DNA from: Marsupella aquatica
Lineage: Eukaryota; Plantae; Marchantiophyta
Assembly: GCA_973895155.1 (NCBI GenBank)
Contig: OZ316896.1
Coordinates: 21,457,643-21,521,642, forward strand
Direction: 5' to 3'
DNA length: 64,000 nt
Position numbers and translations under genes: made by a program. How positions within the stretch are numbered: the stretch's first letter is position 1; each line of letters starts with the position of its first letter. The notes beneath the pieces were generated by a model. That model ran no database searches. It worked only from the letters and a program-made list of their open reading frames with translations, and had not been told where the DNA came from. Below, piece by piece: positions 1,372 to 36,039 of the stretch.

Positions 1372-2123
1372 AACATCTGATGGCTGATGGTTCTGATGGC
1401 TGAGGAGAAGAATTCAAAATAATGACAGAGGTCTACTGTACTACTGGGGTTGGTTATTCATTTGCCGACCTATCTAGCTACTGTATATGGGGTCAATCGA
1501 TGGCTGAGGATAAAATTTTTAATGGGGTCTAGTGGGGTTGAAAAACTGTATTGCCTGTGTAGCCACTTTATGTGGGGTCTGATGGCCGAGGAGAAGGTGG
1601 TCAAAATGGTCCTATGGCTGAGAAGGATACAGTAAACAATCCAAGTCAACGAGGCGCATGCAGGTGGGTATGGCTGATGACAAGATTTCACTAGTCCAAC
1701 TCAATAAGGCCCATACAGGACTGGTGGGGTCTGATTGCTGAGGAGAAAATTCCAAAAGAGGTCCCCGCAGCCCCCTAGGAGGGACTTGCACTAATAGGTG
1801 TAGCTTAAAAGGGCACTGTGTATTCTTGAACCCCACCCAGCCCTTGAAACAATGATTTATTTTTTGTGCCTAAAACGGATGTTGAAGCCCCCACTTTATC
1901 GTCACGTGAAATTGCCACAGACCAATCTCGAGGATATGGAGTGCGAGTCTGAACTTTTCCCTGGACTGTCTATGCCTGACATCTCTTCAATCGGCAGAAT
2001 GATTGATGATCAGCTTAGGCCAAGAGCGAAAGAGATCCGTCGACATATGACTGAGGTTCTCTCTTAGAGATCACCCAGTACAGAAGACCAGCGAATTGGA
2101 GGTCGCAGCTGACAGCAGGAAAA

Positions 2124-3743
2124 ATGGTAACCGGTGCTCATGGACACCATGAACAACGAGATGGTCGATACGTCTTGGATCCTGAAGAGGCACGCATCGA
2201 GTATGGCGAAGAGATCGCTAGCAAGCTGAAGCTCAGTAAGAATGAGAAGTACGTGCTATGGCCACAACCGACGGACAGCCCGCACGATCCTCAGAATTGG
2301 AGCAATGGCAAGAAAGCTCTCATGCTCTTCATCGCCACCATCGCCGGGTTCGTGCCGGACTTCAACTCGGCCGTAGGCATCGCGACGCTCTTCAATCTGG
2401 CGGCTCAATTCAAAACCTCCGTGAACAACGTCAACAACCTGACCACGAACTGGGCCATCTTCCTCATCGGGTTTGGCGGTATCGCGGCCGTGCCCTTGAT
2501 ACGAAAGTTCGGTAGGCTTCCGGTGATGTTCTGGTCTCAAGTGTTGAGCCTCGCCTTTCAGCTCGGCTGCACATTCTCTCCCAACCTCAGCACATTTGCG
2601 GCAATGCGCTGCCTGAACGGCTTCTTCTCAGCCGCACCGCAGGTGTCTGGACTCTACACCATTGTGGACATGTTCCCCGTCCACCTCGTCCATAGCAAAG
2701 TTACCATTTGGACATTCGGCATTCTCGTGGCGCCCTTCGTCTCACCATGGTTGCTCGGATACCTCGCTGCACGCCAGAACTGGAGATGGGCGTACGGAGT
2801 CTCGTGCATGTACTGTGGTTTCGTCGTCTTCATGATCGCATTTTTCTTCGAAGAGACTCTCTATGACCGCCACCTTCAGCCGATTCCACCTCGCCCGACC
2901 AGCGGACTGCGGTACCGCATCGAGACTCTGCTAGGTGTGACCGGGTGGAAATTGAGGAAGTACAGAACGTCGATGTGGCAATCGGCTCTCGACCTCTTCA
3001 ACGTGCTCTGGCGTCCCCACTTCTTCCTCAGCGCCTTCTTTGCGTTGCCCTCGTCCGGTTTTGCTATAGGAATCATCGTCACCAATCCGATCTTCTTGGG
3101 ATCCCCCAAGCCCATAGGGTACGGATACAAGGGTGACATCGTGTCGACTCTCTATCTGACTCCGATCGTTGCGGTGATCCTCGGAGAGATACTAGCCAGA
3201 TTGTTCAACCAGCTCGCGGTCAACATGAGCGTGAGACGGGACAAGGGTGTGTTCGAGTCCGAGGATATCTTGATCGGGACCGTCGTGGGGTTGCTTATTT
3301 ACGTTGCTGGCATTGTCCTCTTCGGCTGGACCATTGAGCACAAGGCCAACATCGCTGGCCTTATATTCGGCTGGGGACTGGTGACCGTGGCCATTGTGTT
3401 CATCAACGTGGCCTTATATTCCTACTCCGGCGTGAGCTTCCCTGGTCGAGAAGGGGAATGCAGCGCTCTGCTCAATTTAGCTCGCGTTCTTGGAGGGTTC
3501 GCGGTTCCCTACTTCCAAGTCAAATGGGTCACGAAAAACGGTGCCCTGCAAGCGTTCGGATGCGAAGCAGCTGTTGTCACGGGCGTCTGGATGATTTGCA
3601 TCCCCATCTTGTTCTGGAAAGGAAAGCGGATCAGAGAACTCTTCTCCATCAAAGGACAATCTCCACAGGATACTTTTCTTGTTGGCAAATCAGCTCACCA
3701 GAGAGATCCAAAGATTTCTGATATGCCGAAAGAGGCGGCATAG
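2124..3743 (+). CDS. Major facilitator superfamily transporter, fungal DHA1/HOL1-like, intronless (copy 1)
   Basis: 539-aa ORF with ~12 hydrophobic segments; WPQPTDSPHDPQNW pre-TM1 motif, KFGRLP motif A, WRWAYG, FFEETLYDR are typical of fungal MFS proteins. Confidence 0.9.
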   Translation: MVTGAHGHHEQRDGRYVLDPEEARIEYGEEIASKLKLSKNEKYVLWPQPTDSPHDPQNWSNGKKALMLFIATIAGFVPDFNSAVGIATLFNLAAQFKTSVNNVNNLTTNWAIFLIGFGGIAAVPLIRKFGRLPVMFWSQVLSLAFQLGCTFSPNLSTFAAMRCLNGFFSAAPQVSGLYTIVDMFPVHLVHSKVTIWTFGILVAPFVSPWLLGYLAARQNWRWAYGVSCMYCGFVVFMIAFFFEETLYDRHLQPIPPRPTSGLRYRIETLLGVTGWKLRKYRTSMWQSALDLFNVLWRPHFFLSAFFALPSSGFAIGIIVTNPIFLGSPKPIGYGYKGDIVSTLYLTPIVAVILGEILARLFNQLAVNMSVRRDKGVFESEDILIGTVVGLLIYVAGIVLFGWTIEHKANIAGLIFGWGLVTVAIVFINVALYSYSGVSFPGREGECSALLNLARVLGGFAVPYFQVKWVTKNGALQAFGCEAAVVTGVWMICIPILFWKGKRIRELFSIKGQSPQDTFLVGKSAHQRDPKISDMPKEAA

Positions 3744-5211
3744 ACCAGACTTGAAGCGTTTGCTAGTTTTTCTTCTGGTCAGTTGAGTCACAAGACACTC
3801 TCACGACAGGTTTCCAGACAATTCGTTTGCACCATTCAAACACCCAATCTTCCAAAATTTGCTGAAAGTTTTGTACATTCAAGGTGGAATTTAGAGAATT
3901 ATAGGTTTGTGCCAGTAGAAAGTGCTAAATGTAAAATGCAAATAGAGCATGCACTCAATAGTTTTACTCAGAGAGTGGGTGTAGCTTGGGACCGTAACGA
4001 AAATATACAAAAATTGGAGTCAATGTAAAGTGGAATGAGAAACTACGTCACCTTTCGTTTCAAGGGAAGAGGTGATAGATAGGCTCTAAAGTACGTGGAA
4101 ACGCAAGGTGTTGAATTCACAGTGGAATAAGAAATTCCAAATCGGTCTCATGAAGGAGCGTGTGCAGTTGGGGCCATAATTAGTCAGGTATCTCCTTAAA
4201 CCAGAAATGGCAGGATCGTTAGTCAATTGTGGCATGTTAGTTCTAATGCCTTTCGTGTTTTAGCGTATTCAAAAAGTGTATAACAGCTGTGTTATCATAT
4301 CATCTTTAAACTTATTAAAAGAATCATTGTGGAAATGACTATGACTATGGAAATGATGGAATGACTGTGAATTTATTCTAATGTTTCAAATGGTGAACAA
4401 GGGGGAGAATCACGCTGCATCAGTCTCAAACTGCGTGTGCGAGACAAGGTGACACAAGCCAAGGGATACGGGCCATGGGAGCTAGTGTCATAAATATTTA
4501 CTACATAATATTATCACCCTATTCATTAAAACTGGAATTTCTCTCCAGAAGTTGACCTTCAAATTTCTTATTTTACCCCCAAAAGTTCTATAACTTGTTC
4601 TCCAAAAGCATATATTTTAGTGGCCAAATGTACACTTTTTGAGGTCTAAAATTACAATTCTAATGCCCAAATTATTAATTAAATAATTCAGTTATCAATT
4701 ATTAATACTTATTAATTAAAAGACAATAAAGTGTTCTTATTATATACAATATAAACAATGAAAAAATAGAATAAGACAATATAATAAATTCAAATGACCC
4801 GTGATAACCAAGTTACACAAACAGGGAAGGTAAACCAGTGATGTATTATAAAAGTAAAAAACCTATTTTTATAGGGTCGAGACCACGTCTGCCCCAATGC
4901 AGGCTCTAGATGGTTTTGACCGGTTGTTGAATGTATATCAATTCCTATGTAAAAATCTATGTCGAGATTATCTCGACCCAAATGTAGGGTCCACATAATT
5001 TTGATCCGTTGTTGAATCTATATCTCTAGTTATTCCCTTTGTATAAGGTCAAGACCCAAATAACCTTTTTCTGAGAACATATCTACAAGTAAAAGAGGAT
5101 CAACAGCATCTAGACTCAAATGGATAGTACGCATAGCTTCATTGTTTTTTGAGTAAGAATATGTATATCTACAACTCACATTGTAACTGTTCAGTGTAGG
5201 GTCGAGATAAT

Positions 5212-6269
5212 CTAGACCCAAATCTCATGCTCCTCCACCCCGCAGAATTCATTTGAGCAAGTAAATCTAGACCCTGACGGGTCATATTTCATATCGCGAT
5301 TGCAGAAATCGAGAGGCTTCCTATTCCAGAACTTCGTGGTGAGGTCCCTACACCTCAAGACTTCCGAAACAAATCCCCGATGATTGTCTCTGTAGGGTCC
5401 TGTGTACTGATATCCAATTAACGTCTTTGCAAGGTCATTGATTGCCTCCTCCGTCAATTCCTCCATTGGTGGTAATTGTTGCACTTCATTCTTGACATCC
5501 CAAGGAATTTCGTCCGCTATGACATCCAAGATTGTATGGATAACCGAATGAACCCATACCATACTACCCCACCGCTCCGTCAACAACGCATAAATGGCAG
5601 CCTGTTGATCTCTGTCCGCTAAAACATTTATCATAGACCACTTTGGATGATTGATAAAAAGGTAGTGCTGAAGATTGAAGGCATGATACAATTTCCTGAG
5701 CATAGGCCATAGTATTTCTGGAAAGAATGTATCATCCGTGGAAAGATGCGAAAATGAGGAAGGAAACAACCCACAATTCTCTGGATTCACAAATGCCTTC
5801 ATTGGAGTGTCATCAAGAAGGAGTGTATTAGTTTCGTCGTATAATCCACCATAACGTTTCCAAACCACCCTCAAATCCTTCAAATGAATATTTGCCTTCC
5901 CATCGATAATGTCAGGCCTCTGGATTCCAGTATCGAATGTATCTTCTTGTGTGAGAATAAACTTGAATTGCTCTCGCTCTTCTTGACTGAAGATCAAATG
6001 AATCATTTCATCCGTCCTGGGTTTCCTTGCACAAGTCCAAATGGCAACATCAAATAACAAAAAAGCTGCGATTAAGAACTCGTGAAGATGGGGTCGCTCA
6101 ACATACATAAAGTTAAACCCTCCACGTCTCCCCCAGTGGACACCCTTGACACTTGTTGCACTACGGTGCGGTCCGGAACTTGGCGTTTTGACAGAATCCC
6201 AACACATTTTGTTGAGGTCAAGAATCAATAGCTTCCGTCTGATCGGACCGTGAAGTGGAGGCAAGGGTC
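5212..6269 (-). pseudogene. Cargo gene 3' exon: FCP1/NIF-type HAD phosphatase-like domain
   Basis: KLLILDLN, ERPHLHEFL, FDVAIWT, HLKDLRVVW, NTLLLDDTPMKAFVNP motifs; acceptor TTTGCAG at 6270-6276 on minus strand; DLN in place of catalytic DxDxT; Cys cluster at C-terminus. Confidence 0.75.
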
Positions 6270-6391
6270 CTGCAAAGAAGGAACACCAATGTTAGAATTG
6301 TGGGAGATAAAACAAAGGAATGCTCGAGACAATCTCAAGCATCACAAGTGAATGAACAACAGTCAACGTCATACCTATTGTTGGTTGAAGG

Positions 6392-7055
6392 CCCTGGGCC
6401 CCCAGCCTTTGTAAACTAAAGAGGTATACGTGCATACACCCCCCTCCCTAGTACCCCTTATTATTTTTGGGAGCCTATAAAATTTTCTCTTGTTATTCTT
6501 AAAAACTTAATTTTGGAGAATAAATCTGCCCCTTTGAGATATTATAATTTCACATTTTACACCATTTATGAAAGCCTTGAAAAGTTATAAATTCATCATG
6601 TGCAAACAGTTCTAAAACTGAAGGGAGTGTTTTGCAGGGGTTTTGGGTACATACATTTTTGTGTTCGTGACCCTTTAACCCCAAACTTCAACTTTGGGGC
6701 ATTTCTGAACCACAGGGCAAGGTAGTCAGGGTTCAAAAGCTCCAAAGTCCTAAACTACTCTGAATCATAGATGTTGCAAGCATAATTATATGTCATATAC
6801 ACATGTTCCAATAAAGGGTGGCCACAAGGACCAATCCTATTGTGACGCGTGTCACATCCATATTACATCACCTCTCAAAGCATATTAACTAGGGCAACAT
6901 TTATATAAGCCTTTATTAGTTAGAAAGGGTTTTTGAATAAAACCATCCCTTGATATTTCTAAGCCAATTATAAAAATTAATCTCAAATCAGATTTTTTGC
7001 ACCCTTCATCCGTTTGCACGTCCAGCCCATTATTAATAATGCTGGGGGCCCAGGG
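6392..7055. mobile_element. Non-autonomous TIR element (664 bp) with 8-bp TSD, nested in a cargo-gene exon
   Basis: Perfect 15-bp TIR CCCTGGGCCCCCAGC / GCTGGGGGCCCAGGG; TSD GTTGAAGG at 6384-6391 and 7056-7063. Confidence 0.95.
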
Positions 7056-7212
7056 GTTGAAGGTCAGTAGTTGAAGAAATCTCATGACATCTTTGGAGAT
7101 TATTGTCGACGCACTCCACAACTGGTAAGGGCCCGCCTATTTCTGTGAAGGTAGACATAATAATTTAGACGACTGAATTTCAGGACTGTTCAAACTAACT
7201 TGGGTTTCAACC

Positions 7213-9470
7213 TCACGTGCTGAAAGACCCAAATTCATCTAGAAGGTTATCTCCTAGTTGGTTTTGGATGTCCAAATTTATCCCTCCGGGAAGGGTCTCA
7301 ACAAGAGCTGGCTCTGAAGACCAAACTGGCACTAATTTGAACTTATCCTTCCTATACTTTCTAGATCGAATAATCTTCTCAGACTGCTCTATACTGACTT
7401 GTTGACCTTTTGACGGTCCATCAGTCCAAACATAATGAGTAGCACTTGCTTTGAGTGATTTGTAACCAGTTCTACCAATTTCAGTCCCCGGTTTCCTTAC
7501 AAAAGGGAGAATTATGGGGCTTCCAGTAGAAGAATCTGTGAAAACAAGCTTATTCTCTGAAGCGCAAAACATTTGGTCCAAGGGAGAGGACGATGCACCT
7601 GCCTCGTCCTAAGGGGGAGTATGGCAGCCACTAGCTTTCTTAGTAGAGAAAATCTCATCCAGTTGAGGAGGGCTTGGAATTGGTTGGCTAATTGCATCCT
7701 GCAAGGTGGATTCCCAGCCAACATCCAAGGTTGAAGACTGTTGTTCATGTTGTGCATCCCCAAGGCCACCCGATGAAGGAACACCTGGAACGTCGAGATC
7801 ATCTCGAGCATCATTTCCAAATTCAGGCAGTATTTCACCCTCCTCTTCCATGTAGCTTGTGATTTTTGGGCCCTCCGTTTTGCGATGCTCTAAATTCTCC
7901 GCAAATACTTCCTCATAAACACTGGCTTCCACCGGAGCTATGTCTAAGGCCGCCTCTTCTATTACAACAAGGGGACCGGCAGTAATTTCCTCAGATGGTA
8001 ACGGCTCCTTGGGCACATATAAAACCTGCTTGTTGTCATGAAGGAGCTGAGCAAAGGCTTCTGTGAATTCCATCTCTTGAGCTGTGTCCGAATACACAAA
8101 ACAATCACGACCAAGAATGACACAAGCTTTCAATGTCTGTCCTCCAGAGAAGAAATCCAACACTGTATGACCTGGGCACGAGAAATAATCAACAAGACGC
8201 TTTGTCATTCGCAAAGGCTTTGCTCTCGGATTTACAAAGCCACCACGCCGACCGACCATCTCATAAGATGGGGCCATCTTCTCCAAAACTTCGACATCAA
8301 CAGTGGTTTCATCGAGCTTGTCTTTCCCCTTTGATTGGTCTTTGTTGTTCCCAGTAGGGGCCTTCAAAGGCAAGACTGTGAAGTCTCTGTCCCACTTCTC
8401 ACTGTAGTTCCAGAACGCATAAAAGTCATCAAAAAAAATTTGGGACCAGTCTGGTTCCTCTTCACAACAAATTCCCCCAAAGATGATTGAGTCTCGAGCT
8501 CCAATGAGAAAATCTCCCTCCTCCTTGGGCAGCTGATCACGGTAGTAGCTCCCGTACTCCAGCTTTGTGTGGACTTTCTTCTCACGATGAATCTTTTCAA
8601 AGGCACTCTGAATCTGGCCTATCAATGGGCCTTGACGGACAAAAAAGATTACTAAGACCTCTGTCGAGTTCGCCATCTGCAAACAATACTCCAGCAAAAC
8701 AAAAAATTTGGCATCTGTCCACTGCCGTTGTCGAAGACGACCAAAATCAACAATGGAGAGTGGGCACGTCCTTTGCACCGAGTCAACAATCTTAGGCTTC
8801 ATTGTCCTCATCAAATTATCGCTAAAAAATGTGCGATAAGGAGTATCCTCCATTGAAGGCAACCCGCCAAATACCTTGCAATATATCTGCTCAAGCCTAA
8901 CAATGAGACTTTGCGGAAATGGGTCTTTTGGCCTATTTCTTTTTAGGAGGTTGGAAATCCAAACCTCTCCAGCAAGTTGTCTAAGTTTCGGCAACTCACC
9001 ACGATCCATAAATGCAGGCAAAAATTGAGTTAGCTCAAACCAAGTGAGTGAATTGGCAAACCGATCCGGATACTTCAAAACGAAGTACTCCACAATTTTT
9101 TCCCTCAGCTTGGTCATGACTTTGAAAGTATGAGCCATATCACTCATTGATTGAACATCAGATTTGTTGGCTGGGTATTTCTTCAATAAAACCTTATGTT
9201 GTTGAATGGCAGTAAAAACTTTCAGAATGTCGTACTACTTAGGTCTCCTTCAAAGCATCTAAACAATGCCGGCGTAATCATTTTTGTTGTCCGGGATTTC
9301 CCATTTATTTTTGAACCTAACTCCCCTAGACCATCCGGAAGAAGTCCCTTGACCCAATCGATGCACATTTGTCTCCAAGTTCGGAAAAGGTTCTCATCCG
9401 AAAACAGCAACCAAAAAATATTCCTCAGATCGGATTTTCTAGTCGTTATTTTGGCAAGGGCCATAAAATC
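7213..9470 (-). pseudogene. Cargo gene central exon: beta-class N4C/N6A DNA methyltransferase-like domain plus acidic linker
   Basis: NPRAKPLRMTKRLVDYFSCPGHTVLDFFSGGQTLKACVILGRDCF resembles the HPxxKP...PGDxVLDPFxGSG...LGR C-terminal block of N6_N4 MTases; frameshift at ~9230; in-frame TAG at 7609-7611 links ORFs 7609-9186 and 7213-7581. Confidence 0.65.
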
Positions 9471-9640
9471 CTGATCCAAACAGTACAAAGAAAATCTGAG
9501 GCTCGAGACGATCTCGAGGTAGAATTAAGGAACTATGGTAAAATTTATGGGAGAATACATGAAGATAAATCAAATACAAAAACTTGACCTTGAGGCTCGA
9601 GATGATCTCGAGCTAGAAGTGGATTTGAGTTTGAATTTAC

Positions 9641-11151
9641 CTGGAACTTTTGATGATCCGTTAGTCTATTGGACCCAATCACGGGTCTCTCCGGACGGCC
9701 ACACTCGTCAAACTGTCGACAGGCATGGACCATAGTATCAAGAAAACAGGACTCATACTCCATGGTCTTATTAACAGCATTTGCCCTTTGTGAGTGTTGA
9801 GCAAGTATTGTTCTTGGAGTTCTGTCCGAAAGAATTCATGACTTTCGATATTGCAGACTCTTCGCGACCTCCTCCAACTTTGCATCGCTCTTAGCCCAAC
9901 CTATGATCCAAACAGCTGCCTTTGCCGAGTGTTATCCACTGATTGCAAGGAACTGCACCTTCTTATTCTTAACACCCCACTCGAACTCCTTTTGATCCTC
10001 AACAGTATTCTCATAATGGAGCAACTGCAAACTCTCTCTTGAATACAGAATTAAATCCACCACAGCTGGTACCATTCTAGGGTTTCTAACCATGGATTTT
10101 GTGACCTCCATGGCATGGTCTTTATTGAACATCCTATATACCAAAACTGCAGACGGCGAATCTATACTAGTGACAGGAATGTCAAAAGTTTCATTCATGC
10201 CAAATGTGTAATACTCCTCAATCTCCTTAAGAACTTCGGCTCCTTCCTTAACGCTCTTTTCTCCCGGAGCATCTCCTGGAGTGCCATCATCATCGGTATG
10301 TGCATTCACACCCGAGGAAGATGCCGGAATGAGATCTACCTTGGGCGGCGCAGACTTTTTTTGAGGTGGAGCCTTCTTCGCTTTGCTTTTGGGTTTCTCA
10401 ACCCTCTTCCTCTTTTGAGACACCTTTGCTTCCTTTTTGTCCAAACTTGACGTCTTGTCTCCTGCAGCTACAGATTTCAATTTACCTGTTTGTCTCCGAT
10501 GAGACAACACCCATTTTTTACAAGCATCCTCATCAAATTCTCCAGCTCCAAACACAAAATCAGGGGATATGGATTCAAACTCCCCCAATTTGGATTTCGA
10601 CATTAGTCTCAAAACCTTCCACGTGAAAGGAGTCGTGAATGCATCATCACAATCAAACCCATACTTTCGACAATAAAGGAATCCAAAAATTATGTCCGCT
10701 CCAGATATAGGAGTATCTTCTAGCAAATTACTTGTAGTAAAACCCTCGGGGAAGAACCCCATTGATATCACGCTCAGTTGTTTCCTGGCTGCACGTTCAA
10801 TGTTAAGATCGCAAGAGTAGTTTTTGGCGTGAAGTCTAATTAGAGCCCACTTCCCTGTCTCGTGGTTCTCCACCGTCAAAACCATGTCCTTACCGTTACT
10901 CATCACAATAGAAACAATAGGCCCTAGAAGGCTGCACACTAGAGGATCGACTGATGGAGACCTCGTCTTCACACAAATAATAGTTCCTTCCATGTCTTCA
11001 GTTTCAGCAAGCTCAATGGCCCAACAGAATCCAAATAAACCCTGTCCAGGGCAGGAAACCTCGATTGCATGTTCATCTTTGACTACCAAATTGGGCGATC
11101 CCAATTTCGCACCTGGTACAGCCAAAATGTAGCAATTGTCAGAAACATGTA
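9641..11151 (-). pseudogene. Cargo gene 5' exon: Lys-rich region and ParB/Srx-like domain
   Basis: IPVTSIDSP...YRMFNKDHAMEVTKSMVRNP...FLAISG*HSAKAA resembles the ParB-like fold (IxGxH motif); in-frame stops at 9932-9934 and 9836-9838; donor at 9640, acceptor at 11152-11154; upstream exons not resolved. Confidence 0.5.
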
Positions 11152-12439
11152 CTACAAAACCAAGAAACAAATAGGTGGCTCGAGATGATCTCGATCTTCC
11201 TTTTAAGTTTAATAGTCTGACATGTTCCAATGCCATTTCATCCGTGGAATTTAAAAAGAGATTTCAAACCCAAGAAATCTAAAAAGATAACACAATAGTT
11301 AGGAAACACAATAGGCTCGAGATGATCTCGATCCACCATCTGTTTAAAAGATCTTGATCCTCATATATATCAGTTGAGGTTTTATTCCATTGCATATCAT
11401 GAACCAGTCAAATTTAACGAACAACATTTTCAAGAATGATCCAATGTCACCTATTCGACCACATTCAAAACCCTCTAACTCAGTGGTTTGTCATCTTCAC
11501 AAACGAGTTGGAGGACTAAGAAAGTGGTCCAAAAGGCAAGCTTGGATCACAATGAAAAGGATATTAGTAATTGACGACATGGAGTCCTTCCAACTGGAAG
11601 AAATTTGCCAAGGGATACGAATGACCATAAAGGAAGATGGTGAGGGATATATTTGGCTCGAGATGATCTCGAGCCTAACATGTCAAACGAGTGATCCGAA
11701 TATCATATTCAACAATGAACATCATATTCAATCAATGATTAAAATCCACTTTCTCCATTGACTTCTGATACCCACAAACCCGTTCGGATGTCAATAATCA
11801 GAACGAGTTGGAGGGTACAGAAGTCCCTGGAGGAAGGAAATTTTAGATTTTTTGGATATGATGTTTCACTTTTGAAGGATAAGGGTTTCCAACTTGAAGA
11901 AATCTCACTAGGTCACATGCAGGAATTGCATATTGGCTCGAGACGATCTCGAGCCTCATGCCACTTACATAAAATGCAAAATCAATTGATAGATCACAAC
12001 TTTTGAAGCAAAGTATTGCAGAAAACATCAATAGGAATCCAAGGAATCGAAAAACAAGTGGACCAATTGAAGCTCGAGATGATCTCGAGTTAAACCTAAA
12101 CAGAACAAAGATGATGAATTACGTTTAATGGTGCGATGGATCTGATGCGCTGAGTCTAGATGGGTCTAAAGCTCTTTGCCAACGGTTGCAAGGTTGTACT
12201 CAGCGAAGTCCTCCTTGGAGAAATCTACAACAGTCGACATGGCTGGTGAAGAGAGGAACGTACTACGGGCTGAGAACTTAAAAACAAATCTCGAGCCTAA
12301 ACAGAATATCTCGACCCTATCGAAGCTCTAGCTTAAACACAAAATCTTGACACTATAAAATCTCGAGGAAAAAACCTAATCTCGACCCTCTGCAATCTCG
12401 AGGGTAATACAAGGATCTCAAGGCAAGAGCGCAAAACAA

Positions 12440-12850
12440 TCTAGAGGCAAGGAGGCAAGGGACACGAGGAGGTGAAGAGGCGAGGAGGCAAATGTGAAAA
12501 TGGGGACTTCAAAACCCCTGAAGCCACTATAAGCCCCTCGGGGGTCGGCCTTGGCCGTGCCAAGCGTGCTAGGGCTCGTGCAGGCTCAGGCAGGCTGCCA
12601 CGCAACCTGCTGGGTGCGTATAGTCATTATTATGGTCACACGTGTTGTCATTATTGTTATCCGTACTTCAACCCTGCCGTGAGTTTAGCCGTGACACAAG
12701 TTCAACGAAGCCGTCTTATTGGCCTTTTTGTCTGTCAGGGTTTTATATATTGCTTCTCATTTCGTTTCATTGCTCGCTCGTTTCTCCCTCTGCCTCTCTC
12801 TCCCTCTCCCTCTCCCTCTCTTTGGCTCTAGATTTTTGCTCTGATCTCTT
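12440..12850. promoter_or_regulatory. Divergent promoter region of the transposon
   Basis: Lies between divergent genes; GA-rich tract 12440-12490 (CT-rich on minus), GC-rich core, TATA-like TTTTATATA at ~12741, CT-rich tract 12780-12830. Confidence 0.45.
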
Positions 12851-13581
12851 TCTGTTGTTCTTTTCAAGGGTTGTGGACTCTACGTTTGTGTTTAGGATAT
12901 TTCGAGAAATTCTCATTGTAAGCCCTGAAGGAGGTCTAAAATAATTGAGCTCCTATCTTTTAGAAAACCAAACCTTTTCAGCTATACTATTGTTGGTCAA
13001 AATCCATTTGGAAGCATTTTCCCTCTATTTGATGGCCTTTTAGAAGCTATTTCTTAGTGTCTGGAAGTAAACTGGGAGCCTACTTTCTTAATTGCACCAA
13101 ATCATTCCTCTAGATCATCTAGAGCCATTATATGCTCTTATTTTGGGTGGCTTATTATTCATAATAGTTTCTTTGTCAAATACAATGTCCTTTTTGGCTT
13201 GAGATCATCTCGAGTCATAAGTTTGATCCTCAAACTTATTCACTTTTGCCTTCTTTCTAATGGTGCATTCGGTTTTCCTTCTTATAATTGAGTTTGTAGA
13301 GAGTCGGAGGTATAGAATCTGAATTCACTATTCAGTGAGATGTCATATTTTACCTCGAGATCGTCTCGAGCTAAATACTTCTGAATTTTTACATATTGGA
13401 GTTTTTTGTCCCTCTTCTACCTCGAGATCATCTCGAGGTAGAAGAGTTTCTTATTTTCTCTATCACACAATTTTGTGGGATAAACTTCTACACTTGGGTT
13501 TTTTGGTTTGTTTTTGTAGTCACTTTACCTCGAGATCATCTCGAGGTAACTACATCCAACAGTTTGGACCACGTTTTCAAA

Positions 13582-16500
13582 ATGGGTTTTCTTTCGAGGG
13601 GACAAGGTTTGCCTCGTAATCGACGGAGTGGAAGTTGCTTGCGGGACCGTCCTCAAGGTTGACCCGGGTGACTCAGTGCGTAATGTTGATTTGGGAAGTA
13701 ATCGTATAGGAGTTCTCATTGAGAAGTGCTATGAGGGATCACGGGAAATTCCTTACCCTTTGCCGCCGGTCAGGACCCTCTTTGATGCTGTTGACTCTTG
13801 CATTATTTGGGATGCCTGTTTTGCATATTTGAAGTCACAGTCAACTCCAGCGACAACACAAATGGATGCCTCTTGTTCTACAAAGGATACGGTTCCCGGT
13901 TTTGTACCAGACAAATCTTCGATGGGAAGTTTTGGAGACTCGATTATATCTGGCGATGAAGTTGAGCTCTGGATTGGCAATCAGATTGTGGCTCGTGGAT
14001 TTGTGTTCAAGACGAATCCCGATGAGACCTCACAATGAAAGACTTGGCACTTCTAGGATTAGTGTGAAAATATGTGAAGTTTTTCAAGGAAGGGAGAGGT
14101 TACCCTTTCCTCACAATGGAGCCGATACCGTTCAGGAAGCATTGGACACTTTTGTATTCTGGAATTTAAAGGATATTACTCGGAGGAGTTCTTCCCAGGA
14201 TATGCTAAACGACCTGTCCACACGGGATGTTTTTTCAAATTATAATTTCAAGGATTATAGTTTGCGTTCTAATTGGATGACCGAGGAGGTGGAATTGTAT
14301 GCTGAGGATAATCGGACCAAAGTGGGGGTTGGCATCATCACAGTTCCTTTCGAGTCAGGTGCAATTGATGATGATGTTCTTGGACCAGATCACGTTGGGG
14401 TTGCTGTCACACGCGTGATTGACCCTCTATTTTTCCCAAATATCTCCCCAGGAGTGCCTGGTCTTGTTAGGTGGGCTGTCCGTTCACTTCTGCTGATATC
14501 AAGGGGTATTTTTCTTCTGGATCTCATTGAAGAGGTTTCTCCAAAACCAATTATTGATGGTCGAGATCATCTAAAGGTAGATATGAAAGGTGATACTGAG
14601 TTTTCGAAGCACCCATATAATTTCATCAAGAGAACGAAGGTCAACCCAGATGAAAAAAGGAAGAAGCACTTGGAGTCTCGGGCGATACTGAAAATCACAG
14701 AGAAGGAAATCGACTCCATCCAAAGAGAAGGTTGTTGTAAGTTGAAGTGTTGCCTCAGCATGCCGAGAGAAGACCTACAGGCGATAAGGAGGGAATACCA
14801 TGGGATGTCAAGCGACAACAAAACCAGTCACATTCTCACTCTTTTTGGCTGTAGGGAGAAGGAAGTGGAGACAAAAGGATATTTTGTTGTAAGAAGTAGA
14901 CTTGTTTGCAAGGGTGCATTTATTAAAATGCATGGATTCAGCACTGCCAAGTATTATGATTACAAAAATCAATATGAAGCAGGTTGCACTGTTGGATTCC
15001 ACGGAAACAAGGGTTCACACAAGACACGGGGAAGCACCTTGCATGCTCGTGCTTTGTTGGAGTCCATTCTAACCCAAAACGGAGAACCCATGCCGCATCT
15101 TCCCTATGGAGGGTCTCACGGGACTGACACGGTTGAGTACAGACTTCCATCTTGTTTCATGAAGAAAGAGATTTTTGAGTAGGTATACTCAAAAATGGAA
15201 TTAGATGGCTACGTGAAGGTGAGTGAAAACACTATGTATAAACTCTGGAGTGAGTCCTTCATGAATTTTGACTTTCACAAGGGAAGTGCATTTGCAAAGT
15301 GTACACTTTGCACTGAGTTCAAAGATCAGTTGATGCGGGAGAAGAGAAAGAAAGAGCGTTTGGAGATTGAGGAAAGAAGAGCTCGCCATCTTCGTGAGCA
15401 AATATCTAGGAGATATGTTTACTATGCTCATAGGGTTCTTGCGAAGAAGGATCCTGAGAACTATCTTTGCATTATACATGACAAGATGGACCAGGCCAAG
15501 ACATGGATCCCTAGGTTGGTCCCCACTCCTAAATCATTGTCTGGTAGTGGTCAACCGCTCCCCATTGCGCTCACTAGGATGTTGACCCATGGAAGGGATC
15601 CCGGAGTGTATGCTCACTTCAGTTTCACTGTGCTTTGGCCGGGAGATGCAGACTTCACAGTGACATCATTGGCCAAGTGCCTTAGAGATCTGGAGGATTA
15701 CAAGGGGGACAAATCTGGAGACCTCCTTGAAGGATTATATTGGGCTGCAACGAGGCCAATTTTTCAATCTCTTTTGGACTTTGAAGCATTTCTCGCAGGT
15801 TACTTAGAACCCAAAAAAGTCTCAATTGCTAGATTTCAAGGAGCTGAAGATGACCAAGACTACTTTGGTGTTGATCCCAAGGCTACATCTACCTCTTTCA
15901 AACCATTGCCAAGGCACCTGACCTTGCAAATGGATAATTCAGGGAAAGATAACAAAAACCAGTACGTGATGGCATTTTGCAGTAAGCTTGTTAGTAGAGG
16001 GGTTTTTGAAACAGTGCAGATGTCGTTTCTCATGGTTGGTCACACCCATGAGGATGTTGATGCATTGTTTTCAAAAGTATCCAACCAAGTGAAGTACAAG
16101 GAGGTTTCTACCCTCTTGGGGTTGATGACTGAGGTTTGGGAGTGTGAAAGCATTCATCCTGTCCCACGGTTGATCCAAGAGGTTGCAGCTTACAAAGAGT
16201 TTTTGAAAACTTTCAAGGTAAAAGACATAGAGGGTCACTCAAAACCAGTGGCATTTCTTTTCTCTATGAGAGATAATGTTCCAATATATCAATACAAAGC
16301 ACATGTGAAACAACCTTGGTACCCTCCAACCAGAAGGTCCATTTGGAGAACTGATTCCAGCACCAATGCTCTCATTTTACCAGAAGGTCAACCATTTGCA
16401 AAACCCATCTCTGGGGATGTACGAGGCAAGGTTGAAGAAATCATCCCATTCCATAATCGTTACATTGAATTTTTGAAGAAGAGTTATAAGGATGAGACCT

Positions 16501-17270
16501 CTACAGCATATCGTGAGCAGTTTCCTTTGGTGAAATATTGGGAGATGGTGGTGCAAGTATTATCTGGGGAGCTTACAATTGAAGGGGAGGCAGAAATACA
16601 GTTAGCATTGACATATGAACTCTGGCCAAAAACCAACCACAGAACTGGTTACAAGGTTAGTAGTACAGGAACCTCTGAACCATTGGGGGAGCCAAGTAGT
16701 AGTACACAGAATCCACAAATGGTGGAGCTTCAGAATGAGTACCTGGAAGAGATGGAGGATCAAGCTGCAACATTTGTTGGCGCTCGACACGAGCGAGAAC
16801 TTGCACGTTGGATTCCTCTGCAGGACATTCAAGAGGGTCACTTTGTATTTCTCCGTCCAGAGGATGAATGGGAAAAGAAGAATGGGAAATAACGTTTCTG
16901 GTTGGTGAGAGCTTTGGGTGTTGTGGACCCAAACCATGTTCAAGTTCCTTCAGGAGACTTGCAATGCAATGAGAATTCTCCTACTAGTACACGGTATGCT
17001 CCTATGTTCCAAGTGCAATGGTGGAGGCCTAAACATGGTAAGCATGATGCACCGGATCATGTGCGATATTCACGTTGCTTTCAGACCACTAAGACTTGGG
17101 AGGTGGATCCTAGGTTTGACAGTGCCACTGAATGTTGGCAATTTGCTAATTCTGCTATGTATGGATTCAAATCACGCTCTAGAGAAGAAAATATAATTGA
17201 TAGAGGTTTGACCATTCCCAAGAATGTTTTGAAAACACTCAAAACCTACATGGAAGGGATTGTTGAGTAA
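13582..17270 (+). pseudogene. Sola1-like DDE transposase with three Tnp1/En/Spm-like N-terminal repeats
   Basis: CCKLKC, VCKGAFIKMHG, FAKCTLC, IIHDKMDQAKT, LQMDNSGKDNKN, FLMVGHTHEDVDALFS; ORFs 13628-14038, 13866-15182, 15195-16892, 16902-17270 joined by a frameshift (~14030) and in-frame stops TAG 15180-15182 and TAA 16890-16892. Confidence 0.8.
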
Positions 17271-17295
17271 GTCAAATATTTTTTAGTAGTCACTC

Positions 17296-18090
17296 TGTCA
17301 AAGTGAGGGAGTCTATGTCATTTAGTTTGGAATTAGACATGTCAGAGTGAGGGAGTCTATGTCAATTAGTTTGGAATCAGACATGTCTTTAGTACTTACT
17401 GTTGGTTAGTACTAAGTAGTATATATATCTATTTAAGTAACTAATTATTATAATATTTTGGGATACTAGTTTGATTAGGTGGAGGTAATTGGACTTGGAT
17501 ACCTTTATAATTGCTTTAATTAATTATTATATCAATACAGACTATATATTACATGAAGTCTTAATATCCATGATAGGATGTGAGTGCCTCTTAGTACTGT
17601 CTACTAGTAAACCTTAGTTTCAACTTGAGTTGCTTAGAATGTAACAAATTACTTGTCTGAATGGATAGTAAGCCAGGTATCATTCAAATTTAATATATTA
17701 AATGCTCTCAATTAGTAACTAAGTAGAAGGTTAATTTAGTTAGCTAAGGGTAGAGATCATATTGAAACTTTACTAGTTATATGGGTAGAGATCATATTAT
17801 TTGAAGCTTTACTAGTTATATGGGTAGAGATCATATTGAAGCTTTACTAGACACTTATATTCTATTAGTCAAATTGAATCAATGTAAGTAAGTTCTACTT
17901 CTTATCCAACATATTTTACATTATTATCACCCAAATGCTTTTCTTTAGAATCCAAATTAATATTTCATTTTCTCCTATGTACAATCTTGATCCCCCAAAT
18001 GTACAACATCTGGTGCCCAAATGTACAACTCCCACTGCCCAAATGTACAATTCTTGTACCCAAATATATATTTTTTGGTGCCTAAATGTC
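17296..18090. repeat. Subterminal repeats of the transposon
   Basis: 43-bp duplication at 17296-17388, ~37-bp GGGTAGAGATCATATT unit x3 at 17748-17850, CCAAATGTACAA-like unit x5 at 17975-18090. Confidence 0.8.
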
Positions 18091-18381
18091 CAAAGATCAA
18101 AGAATTTTCCAGTTTTAATGAATAGACTGATATATCAGGAACACAAAGTGTAGCATTGAGTAATATGCATCACATTGGTGGTGGTATTGATTTCGTTGGC
18201 CCTGAAAAGGTAAAGGACTCAAGCACTACCCTCAACAATAGTGCTTTAATAAAGATGAAGGTCGTGACAAGGGGCAAAGCTAGATTAAAATTTCAATTCA
18301 TAAAGGTTAATATGCACTTCCGCAGAAAAAAATTTGAGAAAAGCATATATGGGCTGATCGATTGAGTCCAACTTGTCCTTG

Positions 18382-23340: not shown

Positions 23341-24527
23341 CCCGGTTTGAGCTGTCGGACAACTTGTCGTGTTGTCGGACACGACAACTTGTCATTTGTC
23401 GCCCGAAAATGACCCTATTTGTCGCATATTCCTTCTTATGCCCCGGTCCGGCCCCGGCCCGGCCCATTCCCTCCCCGACTCTTCCCGGCCCCTTCCATTC
23501 CCGGCTCGGTCCGGCACCCGGCTCGGCCCGGTCCCTTCCCGGCCCGGCCCCGCATCCCGCCCTGCCCCGCACCCGGCCCGGCCTCACAAACACTAGGTGA
23601 GGGCGGGCCGAGTGCGGGGCCGGGCGGGATGCAGGACCGGGCTGGGAAGGGGCAGGGCCGGGAAGGGAAGGGGCCGGGCCGGGAAGGGGCAGGGCCGGGA
23701 ATGGAAGGGGCCGGGAATGGGAGGGGCCGGGCCGGGAAAGGGCAGGGCCGGGCCGGGAAGGGACCGGGCCGGGAAGGGGAAGGGACCGGGCGGGATATAC
23801 ACAGGGAAGGGGCAGGGCCGGGAAGGGAAGGGGCCGGGCCGGGAAGGGGAAGGGACCGGGCGGGATATACACAGGGAAGGGGCAGGGCCAGGAAGGGGCA
23901 GGGCCGGGAATGGAAGGGGCCGGGCCGGGAAGGGGCAGGGCCGGGCCGGGAAGGGAAGGGACCGGGCCGGGAAGGGGAAGGGATCGGGCCGGGAAGGGGA
24001 AGGGACCGGGCGGGATATACACAGGGAAGGGAAGGGGCCGGGCCGGGAAGGGGCAGGGCCGGGAATGGAAGGGGCCGAGCCGGGAAGGGAAGGGAAGGGG
24101 CCAGGCCGGGAAGGGGCCGGGCCGGGAAGGGAAGGGAAGGGGCCGGGCCGGGAAGGGACCGGGCCGGGAAGGGGAAGGGACCGGGTGGGATATACACAGG
24201 GAAGGGGCAGGGCCGGGAATGGAAGGGGCCGGGAATGGGAGGGGCCGGGCCGGGAAGGGGCAGGGCCGGGAAGGGAAGGGGAAGGGACCGGGCCGGCCAC
24301 ATATACACAGGCCGGGAGAGGGGTGCCGATTCCAAATACACGAGCCGGGCCGGGATTTTCTGGTCGCGACGGGCCGGGCCGGGACGGAACCGGGTAACAT
24401 TCCGGGGATAGTAGCCGGGCCGGGAATTACCGGCCCAGAGCCGGACCGGGGACCGGGGTGGACCGGGTGACAACTTGTCGGTTGTCGAGTCCAAAGACCT
24501 CTATTTGTCGGACAAGTCCAAACCGGG
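23341..24527. mobile_element. Non-autonomous TIR element with GC-rich minisatellite core and 8-bp TSD
   Basis: TIR CCCGGTTTG / CAAACCGGG with GACAACTTGTC subterminal motifs; TSD CATCCAAC at 23333-23340 and 24528-24535; internal GGGCCGGGAAGGGG repeats. Confidence 0.9.
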
Positions 24528-24954: not shown

Positions 24955-25180
24955 CTTGCATGGTCCAAGGACGACCGGCCCATAGGGAGTCAGCCAGGGC
25001 ATTTATGGGGCAGCATGGGGAAGCATATATGTGCCAGGACCCACGGGTGCCCATTTCTTTGATCAATGGTCAGAGGAAACAGCCAAACAAATCCAACGGA
25101 CTGTGGATCTTCCCTGTCAGGGAACTTTTTTGTATTGGGATGAAGGACAAAAAAATGTGCTAAGATCACTTATTATAGTT
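24955..25180 (+). repeat. Dispersed repeat (inverted copy at ~48895-49140)
   Basis: CCGGCCCATAGG...GGGTGCCCATTT...ATCAATGGTCAGA...GGAACTTTTTTGTATTGGGATGAA shared in reverse complement. Confidence 0.85.
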
Positions 25181-29761: not shown

Positions 29762-32700
29762 ACACTGGACTAAACTACGAGTGGTCAGTCAAGGTCGTCT
29801 TGGTCAGGTACGAGCTACCGGTTGGGGTTGGTTGTTGGCCATACTTCCCATCTCTTTTGAAGCGCTCCTGTTTCTGGAATATACTTGGTATTTATAACTA
29901 AGGAACACTCAGGTAGAACTTGGCTCTACTGTAGTTGTTCCAGCCAATTATTGGACAAAGACTTGTATAAATGCCGACCAGGCGGACCAGCGCTGTTGTT
30001 GATCACCACACTTGAGTTCGGCCATTAATCCTCGAGATTGTCAATAATATTGCATGGTGCCATGGTAGAATGAGTGTGGTGAGCTATACTCTGGAAAGTC
30101 GGTCCGTGAAGTGACCCAAGCTCGACGACGTTCATTATAATTGCTAAATAAACCTCTTACTGTTTCCATATTTTATTTCATCGTTTGACTATGAAAGAAA
30201 ACATCTCATATATTCAACAGTTGATTTTGAAATATATTTTTTAATTTTTTTATGTGAATAAAATGATATTAATATTATCATGCATGTTCATCTTTTTGAC
30301 ATACATAATATCTCATAGTTCTTTCCATATATGGGCATGAATTTGGTGGCGCCCTATGGGTTAGTGTCTAGAGATTTCAGCTTTTGTTTGCGATTTATTT
30401 ATGAGATATAATTTATATTAGTTTGGTATAGCACTACAATAAGTAATTTTGCAGAATTTTTCATGTGGTCAACTTACATCACATCATTTTGATAGGAAGC
30501 ATGCTTGAATTGGCCGTCTGATTATGCTGACCCTTGTTCTTGATCATGAGATGGGCCTGAAGGGATCTCTATGCACCTTTTCATGCCTGGGTCCATGCCA
30601 AGCTTGTCAATTCTTGAAATCTAGTTTTCAGACAGACTTTCCAACTCTTTGCAGTGTTTGACTGCCTGAGTCAGTGTTCATTTACTTGTTGGCTGACTAC
30701 ATTTTCTGCTTGAAAGGGGGCTTGACAGGGGGCTTGACATCACTTATTATCAACAACTTTGTGCAACTCATAGACTGGCCAGAGTACGTTTCGTTGTGTA
30801 CGTTTTGACTTTTTTGCTAGCCAATGTTGACTCTGTGAAGGAGAGATGCTCAAAATATTCTTTATGTGATTTTACTAGAATATTTTACTGACCATTTTAT
30901 GATAGTTAGAGACCATTTGATGATGGGGCCTGTGATTTAGATGGGACAGTGGCTAATGAGACAAAGAAAAACTAACAATTTTTTGCCAAGTGGTTAAGAA
31001 TTTATAGGGAGGTGGAATCTGGCTAATTTTTGCCACTAAAATAAATGCAGGTCCACTTTCCCTAGAGTGACTACCAAATATTAGTCAATGGAGACCACTT
31101 GGAAGTGACACACCATGTACAATGAAGCATAGACTCATTCAAATGGGGGAGCATAAACTCCCAAAGATTTGTGTAAGAACAAGACATGTTTAATTCACTA
31201 GTCAGCTTTAAAGAACCCAAGGTCTATGTAATTGTAGCAACAAAATTTCTTGAAGTTTTTAAGAATTATAAAATTGGGAATGGCCAGATTTAAGGAAAGA
31301 AACGGTGAGACAAAATTTATATTGCTTGTAAGATAGGGGGTTATAGTACAAAACCCAGTTGGGTTTGAGATGCTCTCATGAGTCCAAGACCTTCACAGCA
31401 GTCGTTTACCAGGGAGAAAGTAGAATCGATCTACACAGGCAAAGAACTTACCTATTGTAATAATTCTAGCAGACAAGTGTTGCGTCAGCTGGAGAAAGAA
31501 CGCGTCTCAAAAGTGGCTGACCCCACAGACTGTAGCTTGGACATTGCTCGAGAATTGCTACACTCAGGCTATTGATGAGATAACCAATAAGACAAACAGA
31601 ATCTCCCAAATCATACTGTAGATTTTAGGCTAGTTTACGTCAGGAAAGCTCTCTAATGTAGACAATTCTCCCTTTGCGGCTTCCCCTTGACTGTCTCCTT
31701 TTGGAAAGGTTTTGTACCTAGAGAATTGAAGGCGATATATGTTTGATGGGCCATGTGGTGAAACTTTTTTACGTGATGGGACCCCACCAAACTTTTTCTA
31801 CCTAATAGGCCCATATGTACTAAACTTTTTTCACATAGTAGACCCCCTACTTACTGTTCTTGTGAGGTGCTGAACTATGTAGTTGACCACAACGGGGTTC
31901 TAAATAGGGCAGCGACGGGTTTACGCATGAAGACATATTGCATTATGTATTCGTGTGTTGTGAGGGGTTTAGGGTTGTTGTCAATACCTGACAATCGTCG
32001 CTCTTTAATTCTTTGTGTTGCTAGAGGGAAGCGCTTGGGTTTTGTTGATGCTTGGGCTTGTGTCGATGCTCGATGCTCGGGTTTTGTCAATACCTTCAGG
32101 TTGCTGATTGAAGCCCAGTCTGTGCCTAGTGCCTAGTGACAGAAAATGAGTGCCCAATGGCAAGTGACAAAAAAAGTGCTAGTAAAAGTACCAAGATCAT
32201 GATGACCACACATGTCCTCCAAACTGATAGTTGTGATCAAAAACATCGAGAAAACCCTGTGTGAAGCACGTGAAAGTAAACCCTATGACTACCCCACAAT
32301 ACAGTAAAAATTCAAATCTAAAGACATAATTCATATTGTCTTCACTTTGCAGTTTGTGTAGCGTATGCGGTTCAAATCCGAAGACATAATACATATTGTC
32401 TTCAGTTTGCACTTTGGGTAGTGGCGGCCACAATTCCGCAGTTCCCCTAACAGCATCGTTTGACCATGTAAGGTTGGGTGTGGGGTTTGACGGTGCAGTT
32501 GATCATTGCATCAAGCAAAAATTGGTTAAAGTGACTGCTAGAAGAACAACTAATACAAAAGTGTAATAGGGGGACTGTTAAGTAAAAAACCTTTTATTAG
32601 GGGCCCACCAGGTAAAAAAGTTAGACTAGATGGCCCATCGAACATATACCTTATAATTGAACCACATAGGCAACTTGGGAAAAGAGATTGATCGCATGCA

Positions 32701-33489
32701 AGAAGCTCCATTGTCCACAATGTCATCCGTACGTAGTCAATTTGGTCAAAATGGTCAAACAAGGTTTAGCCATTTAGATGTGTGGTGATGTGCTCCAGAT
32801 GAAACAAGTCTGGGTCAATTTAAATGGTCAAGCGTCGTTTGACCATTTTGATTTCATTTTTACAAAGCATTAATAGACTCAATATTTTGTGGTTATACAG
32901 TAAACTTTGAAAGAATTCCTTCTTTCATCTGGGTACACTGTAGCATTTAGATGTGCATGTGATGTGCTCGAGTTCCTATTGCAATTTATTCACTTAGTGG
33001 AGCTCAATCTGTCATCACTAATACCATTGATAACATTCCCACATGTGGAAACCCTTGATAATTGCCCATTTAGCAAAAAGATGTAAAGCACACACTCATC
33101 GATATGTGGATGTTCTTGCGCTGGGCAGGTATAGGGTTTGGCATCTACTAGCCAGGTAAAGGTATAGTGGACACCTATAATCAGCAAGGTATAGTATTGA
33201 AGTGGTATAAAGGAAAAACTTATCAAGATATATTTTTAAAAATAGTAGATATGCTCTGACGTTTAGGGACACCACAATGTATCTCCATAGTAGTTTTTGT
33301 CCGCTAAACAAAATAACCTATTCATGGATATATTGCATATATTTTTGGTACCTTCCATTTTCAATTTTTTGGGTACATATGCCTTTTCTGCACTAGAGAG
33401 GATTGCAAAAAAGGAGAGGATGAAAGTTGTTTTCATGAATTCAAGAAGCACTTAACAGTTGGCTTCTCTATTTGGCCACCAGGGTGTTG

Positions 33490-33818
33490 AATTGATGACT
33501 CCTCTTATTTTGGAAACCAGAGTCCTGAATTGAAGGCTCCTATTTTTGGAAACCAGACTCATGAATTCATGACTCCTCTTTCTTTGGAAACTAGAGTCAT
33601 GAATTCATGCTCTTCTTTCTGGAAACCAGAGTCATGAATTCATGACTCCTTCTTTATTTGGAAACTAGACACAATCATGATTTCATGACTCCGCTTCTTG
33701 CTTTGGAAACTAGAGTCATGATTTCATGACTTCTCTTTTTGGAAACCAAAGTCACGAATTCATGTAGATCTCCTCTTTTTTTGGAAACTAGAGTCATGAA
33801 TTCATGACTCCTCTGGAA
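33490..33818. repeat. ~38-bp tandem array with palindromic core
   Basis: GGAAAC(C/T)AGAGTCATGAATTCATGACTCC unit about 8 times; core GAGTCATGAATTCATGACTC is a perfect 20-bp palindrome. Confidence 0.9.
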
Positions 33819-35800: not shown

Positions 35801-36039
35801 CCTGTATTACTGTGACATGAAAGTTTGACGTAGATCAATGTCGAGGATATAGAGTGCGAGTCTGAACTTTTCCGAAACTATCTACCGTGCTTGACGTCTC
35901 TGCAATCGGAGATTGAAGATCAGTGTAGGCCAAGTACGAAAGATATCCGTCGACATGACTGAGACTGAGGTTTTCTCTTAGAGATTGCGCAGTAGAGAAG
36001 ACCAGCGAATTGGAGGCAGCAGCTGCGCCAACAGGGAAA

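Follow-up and report, generated by a model that had tools for sequence, protein, structure and literature searches.

The window analyzed here is a 64,000-nucleotide stretch of the liverwort Marsupella aquatica (GenBank assembly GCA_973895155.1, contig OZ316896.1, positions 21,457,643 to 21,521,642 of the forward strand). Positions 4515-18129 of the window hold a decayed, 13.6-kb DNA transposon, one copy of a multicopy cut-and-paste family, with terminal inverted repeats (TIRs), dispersed insertions and a DDE core. The element carries a transposase gene on the plus strand and two genes on the minus strand: gene A, which encodes an accessory protein with a ParB-like stretch and a beta-class amino-methyltransferase fold, and gene B, which is NIF/HAD phosphatase-like. 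A first-pass annotation made from the sequence alone had described two divergent genes; its opposite-strand layout stands, but gene B has its own ATG and makes a third gene. The same annotation had proposed a self-contained transposon with cargo, and we found this arrangement in multiple copies; in a second liverwort, Riccia, the cargo is likewise conserved and shows linkage to the transposase.

Element ends and insertion site

The 26-bp TIRs described previously are real inverted ends, with 4512-4537 and 18107-18132 agreeing at 24 of 26 bases around an exact 19-bp core (4519-4537 and 18107-18125), but the true terminus probably lies 1-3 bases further inside. When Logan contigs from four sequencing runs (two studies) were mapped on the left end, contig depth rose from 0-76 to thousands, and the unrelated flanks of other insertions joined at 4513 (13 contigs), 4512 (11), 4511 (5), 4510 (1) and 4508 (3), counts that come from 24 of the 51 loose-end rows. 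Because 13 contigs among the rows listed diverge at 4512, the terminus falls at 4513-4515 and position 4512 is not invariant. The element likely ends in CA..TG at 4515 and 18129, which places TTAT on its left and ATAT on its right, with three of the four flanking bases in agreement; other insertions have AT before CACC in common. The left TIR (4515-4537, plus strand, first base somewhere in 4513-4515) reads CACCCTATTCATT..., and the right TIR (18107-18129, minus strand) reads CAGTCTATTCATT... inward. Inward of the right TIR lie three plus-strand copies of the subterminal repeat CCAAATGTACA (17995-18049), and a fourth copy lies at 4624. The target site duplication (TSD) is AT-rich and 4 bp long, one base having changed, or else 2 bp long (AT); the available text on Sola1 elements gives their duplication as 4-bp AWWT (PMC3845634). 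We rejected a 3-bp TAT duplication, which would put the ends at 4512 and 18132 and suits the window copy, because it is contradicted by the 13 contigs that diverge at 4512.

An empty site had been proposed in the paralogous flank of a second MFS transporter gene, and both flanks of the element indeed run into one unbroken stretch there: the left flank (4360-4500) aligns to 38405-38535 and the right flank (18132-18235) to 38554-38651, at about 77% identity, leaving the empty site at 38535-38554 (plus strand), downstream of the second MFS gene. This continuity indicates that the element inserted after duplication of the MFS region.

Elsewhere in the window, an old non-autonomous element of about 340 bp (724-1066) has ends that resemble both the large element's TIRs and its subterminal repeats, and no TSD was seen around it.

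The transposase

The plus-strand gene at 13550-17270 encodes a DDE transposase matching DUF7869 (Pfam, 4e-43), with repeated N-terminal beta domains, Cys motifs, a core containing IIHDKMD, LQMDN and GHTHEDVD, and a C-terminal domain whose SH3/BAH-like character was judged by eye only. The GHTHEDVD and DNSGKDNKN motifs named in the first-pass annotation are both present. Although the window copy is broken by one frameshift and two stops, the acidic residues D251, E290, D291 and D293 are invariant among the 17 transposase sequences aligned. We presume DUF7869 to be equivalent to Sola1, and the transposase likely belongs to the Sola1 group. Its nearest named relatives come from Calypogeia fissa (67%, covering 61% of the query), Riccia sorocarpa (at most 53%, covering 60%) and the moss Ceratodon purpureus (34%); the moss relative, like the best match of an Ectocarpus Sola1-1 element to Sola1-1_PPa, is an indirect pointer to Sola1. 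A scan of viruses with the transposase alignment gave no relative (0 of 79), and no donor was found.

Gene A and its methyltransferase fold

Gene A (7213-12240, minus strand) has small 5' exons at about 12240-11150, with approximate boundaries, and an intron at 9640-9471. Its product runs from an N-terminal domain through a ParB-like stretch with the motif ISGxHS, a helical region, the methyltransferase fold (about 8740-8050, minus strand, with motif IV DFGR and motif I DFFSGG) and an acidic linker to a small, conserved C-terminal domain ending in DEFGSFST, a terminus whose DE(F/Y)GSF form is common to further homologues. The window copy is disrupted by three stops and one frameshift.

The prediction of a DNA-methyltransferase-like cargo gained support from both domain and fold comparisons. 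Gene A matches Pfam N6_N4_Mtase at 27.8 bits against a cut-off of 26.7, and an AlphaFold model of the homologue P0075 (28% identical to the window open reading frame, ORF), confident over residues ~460-750, matches CcrM (Z 17.8, root-mean-square deviation 3.3, 215 aligned) and also M.RsrI, M.PvuII and rotifer N4CMT, enzymes with which the gene A family shares the fold and the permuted motif order IV...X-I of beta-class amino-methyltransferases. The S-adenosylmethionine (SAM) motif I reads DFFSGG in 36 of 48 gap-free rows; M.RsrI has one residue more at this motif. In motif IV, 44 of 46 rows keep the aspartate, with readings such as DFSR, DLTH and DFGR. Whereas beta-class enzymes carry (D/S)PP(Y/F), and the prokaryotic ones fetched for comparison have DPPY or DPPF, the gene A family has D-F/L-S/T-R/H: the PP-aromatic catalytic motif (D/N/S)PP(Y/F/W) occurs in none of the 46 aligned rows, and the pattern [DNS]PP[YFW] in none of 181 family proteins, many of which are fragments. 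In rotifer N4CMT, mutation of SPPY abolishes activity, according to the available text (PMC8885841). Since that loop is needed in N4CMT and absent from these 46 rows and 181 proteins, the family is not one of canonical N4/N6 methylases, and the family-wide absence of catalytic motif IV weakens the earlier proposal that the cargo marks the element's own palindromes. The retained SAM pocket may nevertheless permit an altered chemistry.

A tree that sets 17 family rows beside 12 phage or bacterial enzymes places the family in one distant clade whose donor is not identifiable. Run against viral and metagenome contigs, the methylase alignment recovered only ordinary prokaryotic beta-class methyltransferases (12 and 28 loci), hitting them in the region around motif I. 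One UniRef label suggested a BAH identity for the N-terminal domain of gene A, which we set aside because Pfam and the PDB gave it no backing; a Riccia N-terminal profile did not pick up the corresponding window region. The C-terminal domain (P0075 residues 937-985, window 7213-7450) is modeled at a predicted local distance difference test score (pLDDT) above 90. A single fused ORF of ParB-like, methyltransferase and phosphatase parts was ruled out for the window copy by the DE(F/Y)GSF terminus of gene A together with the separate ATG of gene B, and a weak search among 1806 candidates yielded no fused homologues of greater length.

The ParB-like stretch

The ParB identity proposed for this cargo was confirmed by no profile or fold search, and the assignment is an unproven, motif-level resemblance. 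The stretch is conserved, with AISGQHS and RIL motifs, and AISGQHS stands where the GxxR-type motif carried by the ParB N-domain fold would be expected. Aligned by hhalign to 30 phage ParB-methyltransferase N-termini it scored 1.5%, inside the shuffle range. A Foldseek search with the low-confidence model of the stretch returned nothing at E≤0.001, and VIA structure comparison of that model gave a best Z of 5.5, on a helical hairpin. By language-model features, a method uncalibrated for protein parts, the stretch lies nearest DUF3723 clusters (0.95-0.96), a family described, in the text available, as a conserved passenger of the fungal giant transposons called Starships. We found no paper that pairs DUF3723 with ParB, and a DUF3723 profile found nothing in two phage ParB-methyltransferase records, where the control failed to score too. 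Scans with the ParB-like alignment identified relatives in 0 of 88 cases from genomes and 0 of 171 from viruses, and no donor.

Gene B and a nested element

Gene B (5212-7158, minus strand) starts at an ATG at 7158 and has an intron at 6374-6270 and a main exon at 6269-5212. A nested 664-bp non-autonomous element (6392-7055), a miniature inverted-repeat transposable element (MITE) with a 15-bp TIR CCCTGGGCCCCCAGC and an 8-bp TSD GTTGAAGG, splits the first exon; the length of the TSD leads us to presume that it is hAT-like. Gene B is open over 390 codons once this MITE is skipped in silico, and the insertion is polymorphic, with contigs in three of four runs skipping 6386-7059.

A NIF domain (Pfam, 9.6e-16) substantiates the phosphatase-like cargo of the first-pass annotation. 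Matches to UBLCP1 in the PDB (4.3e-10) and to TIGR02245 (3e-13, versus 0.004 for FCP1_euk) make UBLCP1/HAD-IIID, rather than FCP1, the closest family. FCP1/SCP phosphatases of the RNA polymerase II (Pol II) C-terminal domain (CTD) carry the catalytic motif DxDx(T/V). Gene B has NIF in common with both UBLCP1/HAD-IIID and FCP1/SCP, but it is transposon-borne and its catalytic position reads DLNKM in the window; among 27 rows from Riccia, 19 have DVEGL there and none has DxDx(T/V). Pfam identified no ubiquitin-like or BRCT domain in the cargo. The suggestion that the cargo influences Pol II is weakened by the missing DxDxT and by best matches to UBLCP1/HAD-IIID instead of FCP1, and a Pol II CTD role of gene B is unsupported by its sequence.

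Palindromes around a putative divergent promoter

Between gene A and the transposase lies a 5' non-coding region (12241-13550) that, from gene orientation and a switch in GC skew, we infer to be a divergent promoter. The element contains 17 palindromes of the form TCGAGA-N3-TCTCGA between 4962 and 14575, 12 of them at 9503-13544 around this promoter, where they sit in introns and 5' regions. With at most one mismatch allowed, the element has 15 palindromes, and the 50 kb of the window outside it have none (shuffles: mean 0.025, maximum 1, n=200); leaving the CpG positions free gives the 17, in which 28 of 34 CpG positions are intact and only two have become TG/CA. The first-pass annotation had noted roughly 16 element-specific palindromes. 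The spacer reads TGA/CGA to the left of the promoter (7/7) and TCA/TCG to its right (5/5), an orientation flip. The palindromes are internal to the element, whose ends hold a different repeat (CCAAATGTACA). Their hairpin energies merely reflect symmetry.

Other copies and conservation in Riccia

Contigs from four runs (three studies, three organism labels) fill 29-30 of 30 bins of the element, and in all four runs cargo depth is close to that of the non-core transposase and far above that of the flanks. In run X1, the cargo bins reach 440-990 and the 5' half of the transposase 590-900, compared to 29 and 73 for the flanks. Single contigs in this run stand at 300-440 versus 7.2 on unique flank, which suggests an element copy number of tens or more, summed depth not being equal to copy number. 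By contig comparison, many other copies lack the frameshift near 9233, the one near 14029 and the stop at 15180. Part of the gene A 5' region (window 11331-12037) is skipped in some copies along with several palindromes, so that palindrome number differs by subfamily.

A profile-free search of 1.84 billion representative proteins returned 71 cargo matches (39 at E≤1e-10), one of which is an ordinary prokaryotic methylase. Ten of the 71 were looked up, and the two with names were both from Riccia sorocarpa; a search seeded with one Riccia protein retrieved at least 110 proteins, all from R. sorocarpa. Among 111 Riccia rows, the ParB-like and methylase parts are joined in 19, methylase and NIF in 23 (versus NIF in none of 71 non-Riccia proteins) and all parts in one, and the methylase precedes NIF in all 21 scorable fusions. 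Order and linkage are the same as in the window at ~25-30% protein identity. With respect to linkage, 16 of the 67 transposase tags in Riccia have a cargo tag no more than two locus tags away, compared to 1.8 expected by jitter (p=0.0002); this is a floor, as the 67 tags come from the best 120 of 131 matches and the cargo list is likewise incomplete. The first-pass annotation had asked whether other copies miss the minus-strand gene, which would point to chance capture. Because other copies cover the cargo and the cargo is linked to the transposase in Riccia, chance capture is unlikely, and we are highly confident that element and cargo form a genuine module and are inherited together.

Nine R. 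sorocarpa cargo proteins, all automated gene models from several subfamilies, carry a segment resembling the histone H3 tail, at residue 2 in five and internally in four (P0084, P0098, P0122, P0133, P0141, P0142, P0159, P0170 and P0180). When residues 1-22 of P0159 were compared with the PDB, every top match was a histone H3 (E 1.2e-4), and the segment keeps K4 in 9/9 and K9 in 8/9 proteins.

A candidate self-recognition system

We tentatively favor a reading in which protein A is a catalytically altered self-recognition factor that binds the palindromes and keeps the divergent promoter active. Its supports are sequence, contig and model data, from which each functional step is inferred. Protein A, probably dimeric, would read the palindrome through the ParB-like stretch, the methyltransferase fold or both, and once bound it would shield the TCGA CpGs and nearby promoter DNA from host silencing by 5-methylcytosine (5mC). 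Protein A would keep the two-way promoter open and would not act as a conventional writer of methyl marks. The H3-tail mimic of the Riccia relatives could decoy or recruit readers and writers of H3K4/K9, and the HAD protein of gene B, which lacks the second aspartate, could serve as a helper with altered activity or as a scaffold. That liverwort Sola-type elements as a group carry such a counter-silencing kit of disarmed enzymes, in which a ParB-like palindrome reader goes together with a pseudo-methylase that binds SAM, with a pseudo-phosphatase and, for Riccia, with an H3 mimic, is a more doubtful proposal.

Several observations weigh against this picture. The CpG observed/expected ratio (o/e) is as low in a host gene (0.48) as in the element (0.54); CpG depletion is thus not element-specific, and the retained CpGs are evidence of a constrained motif and not of shielding from methylation. 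ParB identity of the stretch was not recovered in Pfam, PHROGs, NCBIfam, PDB-profile or hhalign tests, and both AlphaFold models fall below pLDDT 50 across most of it. None of the contigs listed spans transposase and cargo together, the Riccia evidence consists of automated models of decayed copies, of which one in 111 has every part, and the H3-tail mimic was not found in the window copy. Finally, an unusual active enzyme would also be compatible with a SAM motif and a first aspartate that are so strongly conserved.

Protein A as such an enzyme, an active amino-methyltransferase with a non-canonical loop whose N4-methylcytosine (4mC) or N6-methyladenine (6mA) on TCGA half-sites marks self and blocks host 5mC, appears rather unlikely; this was the idea of the first-pass annotation, and a similar one was put forward for Ectocarpus. 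A full beta-class fold, a near-invariant motif I and the kept motif IV aspartate are consistent with activity, but motif I is one residue short compared to M.RsrI and no member has the PP-aromatic loop of the fetched prokaryotic relatives. TCGA is a known N4C-methyltransferase target, as far as the available text goes (PMC8885841), and 4mC occurs in Marchantia, although the enzyme described there, DN4MT1, has TSPPY (10.1101/2021.02.12.428880, available text). Deposition of 4mC at the palindrome CpGs would also account for their retention.

Palindromes and cargo could instead serve transposition, with the transposase N-terminal domains or protein A bridging or compacting the 13-kb element or autoregulating its promoter, and chromatin defense being secondary. 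We consider this unlikely: the flip of palindrome orientation at the promoter and the resemblance of the ParB-like stretch to the Starship passenger DUF3723 would fit such a role, but the palindromes are internal while the ends carry CCAAATGTACA, and the H3-tail mimic and kept SAM motif would be left unexplained. Inert captured DNA is highly improbable, for even though all three genes are broken in the window copy and each of the two enzyme-like domains has degenerate catalytic motifs, Riccia shares order and linkage despite low protein identity, motifs are conserved over 70 related matches from other datasets, and many other copies are free of the window's frameshifts and stop noted above.

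Relation to known systems

The first-pass annotation knew of no description of this architecture, but one exists. Sola1-1_Ec32 of Ectocarpus is, in the available text of its description (PMC12477816), a giant Sola-1 element with a 4-bp TSD whose best transposase match is Sola1-1_PPa, and which encodes on the opposite strand a 1104-aa ParB-like and N4/N6 methyltransferase protein, with the suggestion that this protein binds the element that encodes it and modifies it. The window element likewise has a gene with an N6_N4_Mtase domain opposite to the transposase strand. Sola1-1_Ec32 differs in coming from a brown alga, in being 21.5 kb long and in having AACCG at its termini and a TIR of 282 bp; the same text mentions no phosphatase gene, palindromes or catalytic-motif state, and the likeness to gene A is by description only. 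The accessory genes PAG2 and PAG3 of red-algal Plavaka elements also supply N6_N4_Mtase (PF01555) and ParB-like domains, under a self-binding hypothesis, and inverted-repeat arrays adjoin the ParB-like gene (10.1101/2025.02.11.637652, available text). Unlike the window element, the Plavaka elements have an EnSpm/Plavaka transposase, with methylase-SET and ParB-like-2-oxoglutarate-oxygenase proteins on separate genes, and no HAD gene is mentioned in that text. ParB-terminase methylases of phages and inactive methylase domains in DIRS1 elements are also on record (PMC4738411, available text). The layout of a transposase with an opposite-strand ParB-methylase, and the idea of self-binding, are therefore already published (Ectocarpus Sola1-1, red-algal Plavaka). 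What is new is the land-plant lineage, the added HAD gene, the family-wide loss of the DPPY-type motif with the SAM motif kept, the absence of DxDxT and the Riccia H3-tail mimic; we found no paper on a land-plant element with such cargo, HAD gene or H3 mimic in a search that left subscription journals and Repbase outside.

VANDAL transposons belong to a different superfamily, MuDR. Their Arabidopsis accessory protein VANC recognizes and binds motifs that lie in its own element's non-coding DNA, and both binding and hypomethylation are demonstrated in the available text (PMC5735166); according to the red-algal study, no transposon group other than VANDAL has been shown to bind its own sequence and to modify it (10.1101/2025.02.11.637652, available text). 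The window element resembles VANDAL in encoding an accessory protein and in having element-specific motifs in non-coding regions, but it has a DUF7869 transposase, its cargo matches only N6_N4_Mtase and NIF in Pfam, and palindrome binding is here a prediction. By analogy, its logic would be VANC-like with parts unrelated to VANC.

These data extend the hypothesis of ParB-methylase accessory genes from algal genomes to land plants, with a concrete candidate target site, and the combination of a predicted catalytically altered methylase, an H3-tail mimic and a HAD gene makes that hypothesis directly testable in liverworts. Many R. sorocarpa models annotated as 'DNA methylase N-4/N-6' or 'FCP1 homology' probably represent cargo of transposons and not 4mC writers or CTD phosphatases of the host. 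If liverwort Sola-type elements do carry the counter-silencing kit described above, land plants would have, apart from VANC and independent of it, a second anti-silencing system that is sequence-specific, and the kit would have spread to about a hundred Riccia loci that are annotated there as host genes.

Other features of the window

Two intronless MFS_1 transporter ORFs (2055-3743 and 35959-37659) are about 90% identical in DNA, GC-rich and without CpG depletion (CpG o/e 0.98 and 0.97); they look fungal by eye and were possibly acquired horizontally. An inverted pair of segments (25045-25176 and 48902-49029), 81% identical and 24 kb apart, brackets the second of these genes; no TSD was seen, and the pair may represent two separate insertions. 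The window also holds the plant genes LTP and DUF538, which, with Calypogeia fissa as the source of the nearest named transposase, point to a liverwort host. Among its repeats are a GC-rich array at 23442-24444 of short GGGCCGGGAAGG-type units, whose long inverted arms produce long spurious ORFs, a MITE-like sequence at 31736-32648 with 56-bp inverted arms 800 bp apart, and an array of about seven palindromic GAGTCATGAATTCATGACTC units at 33460-33842 that is unrelated to the transposon.

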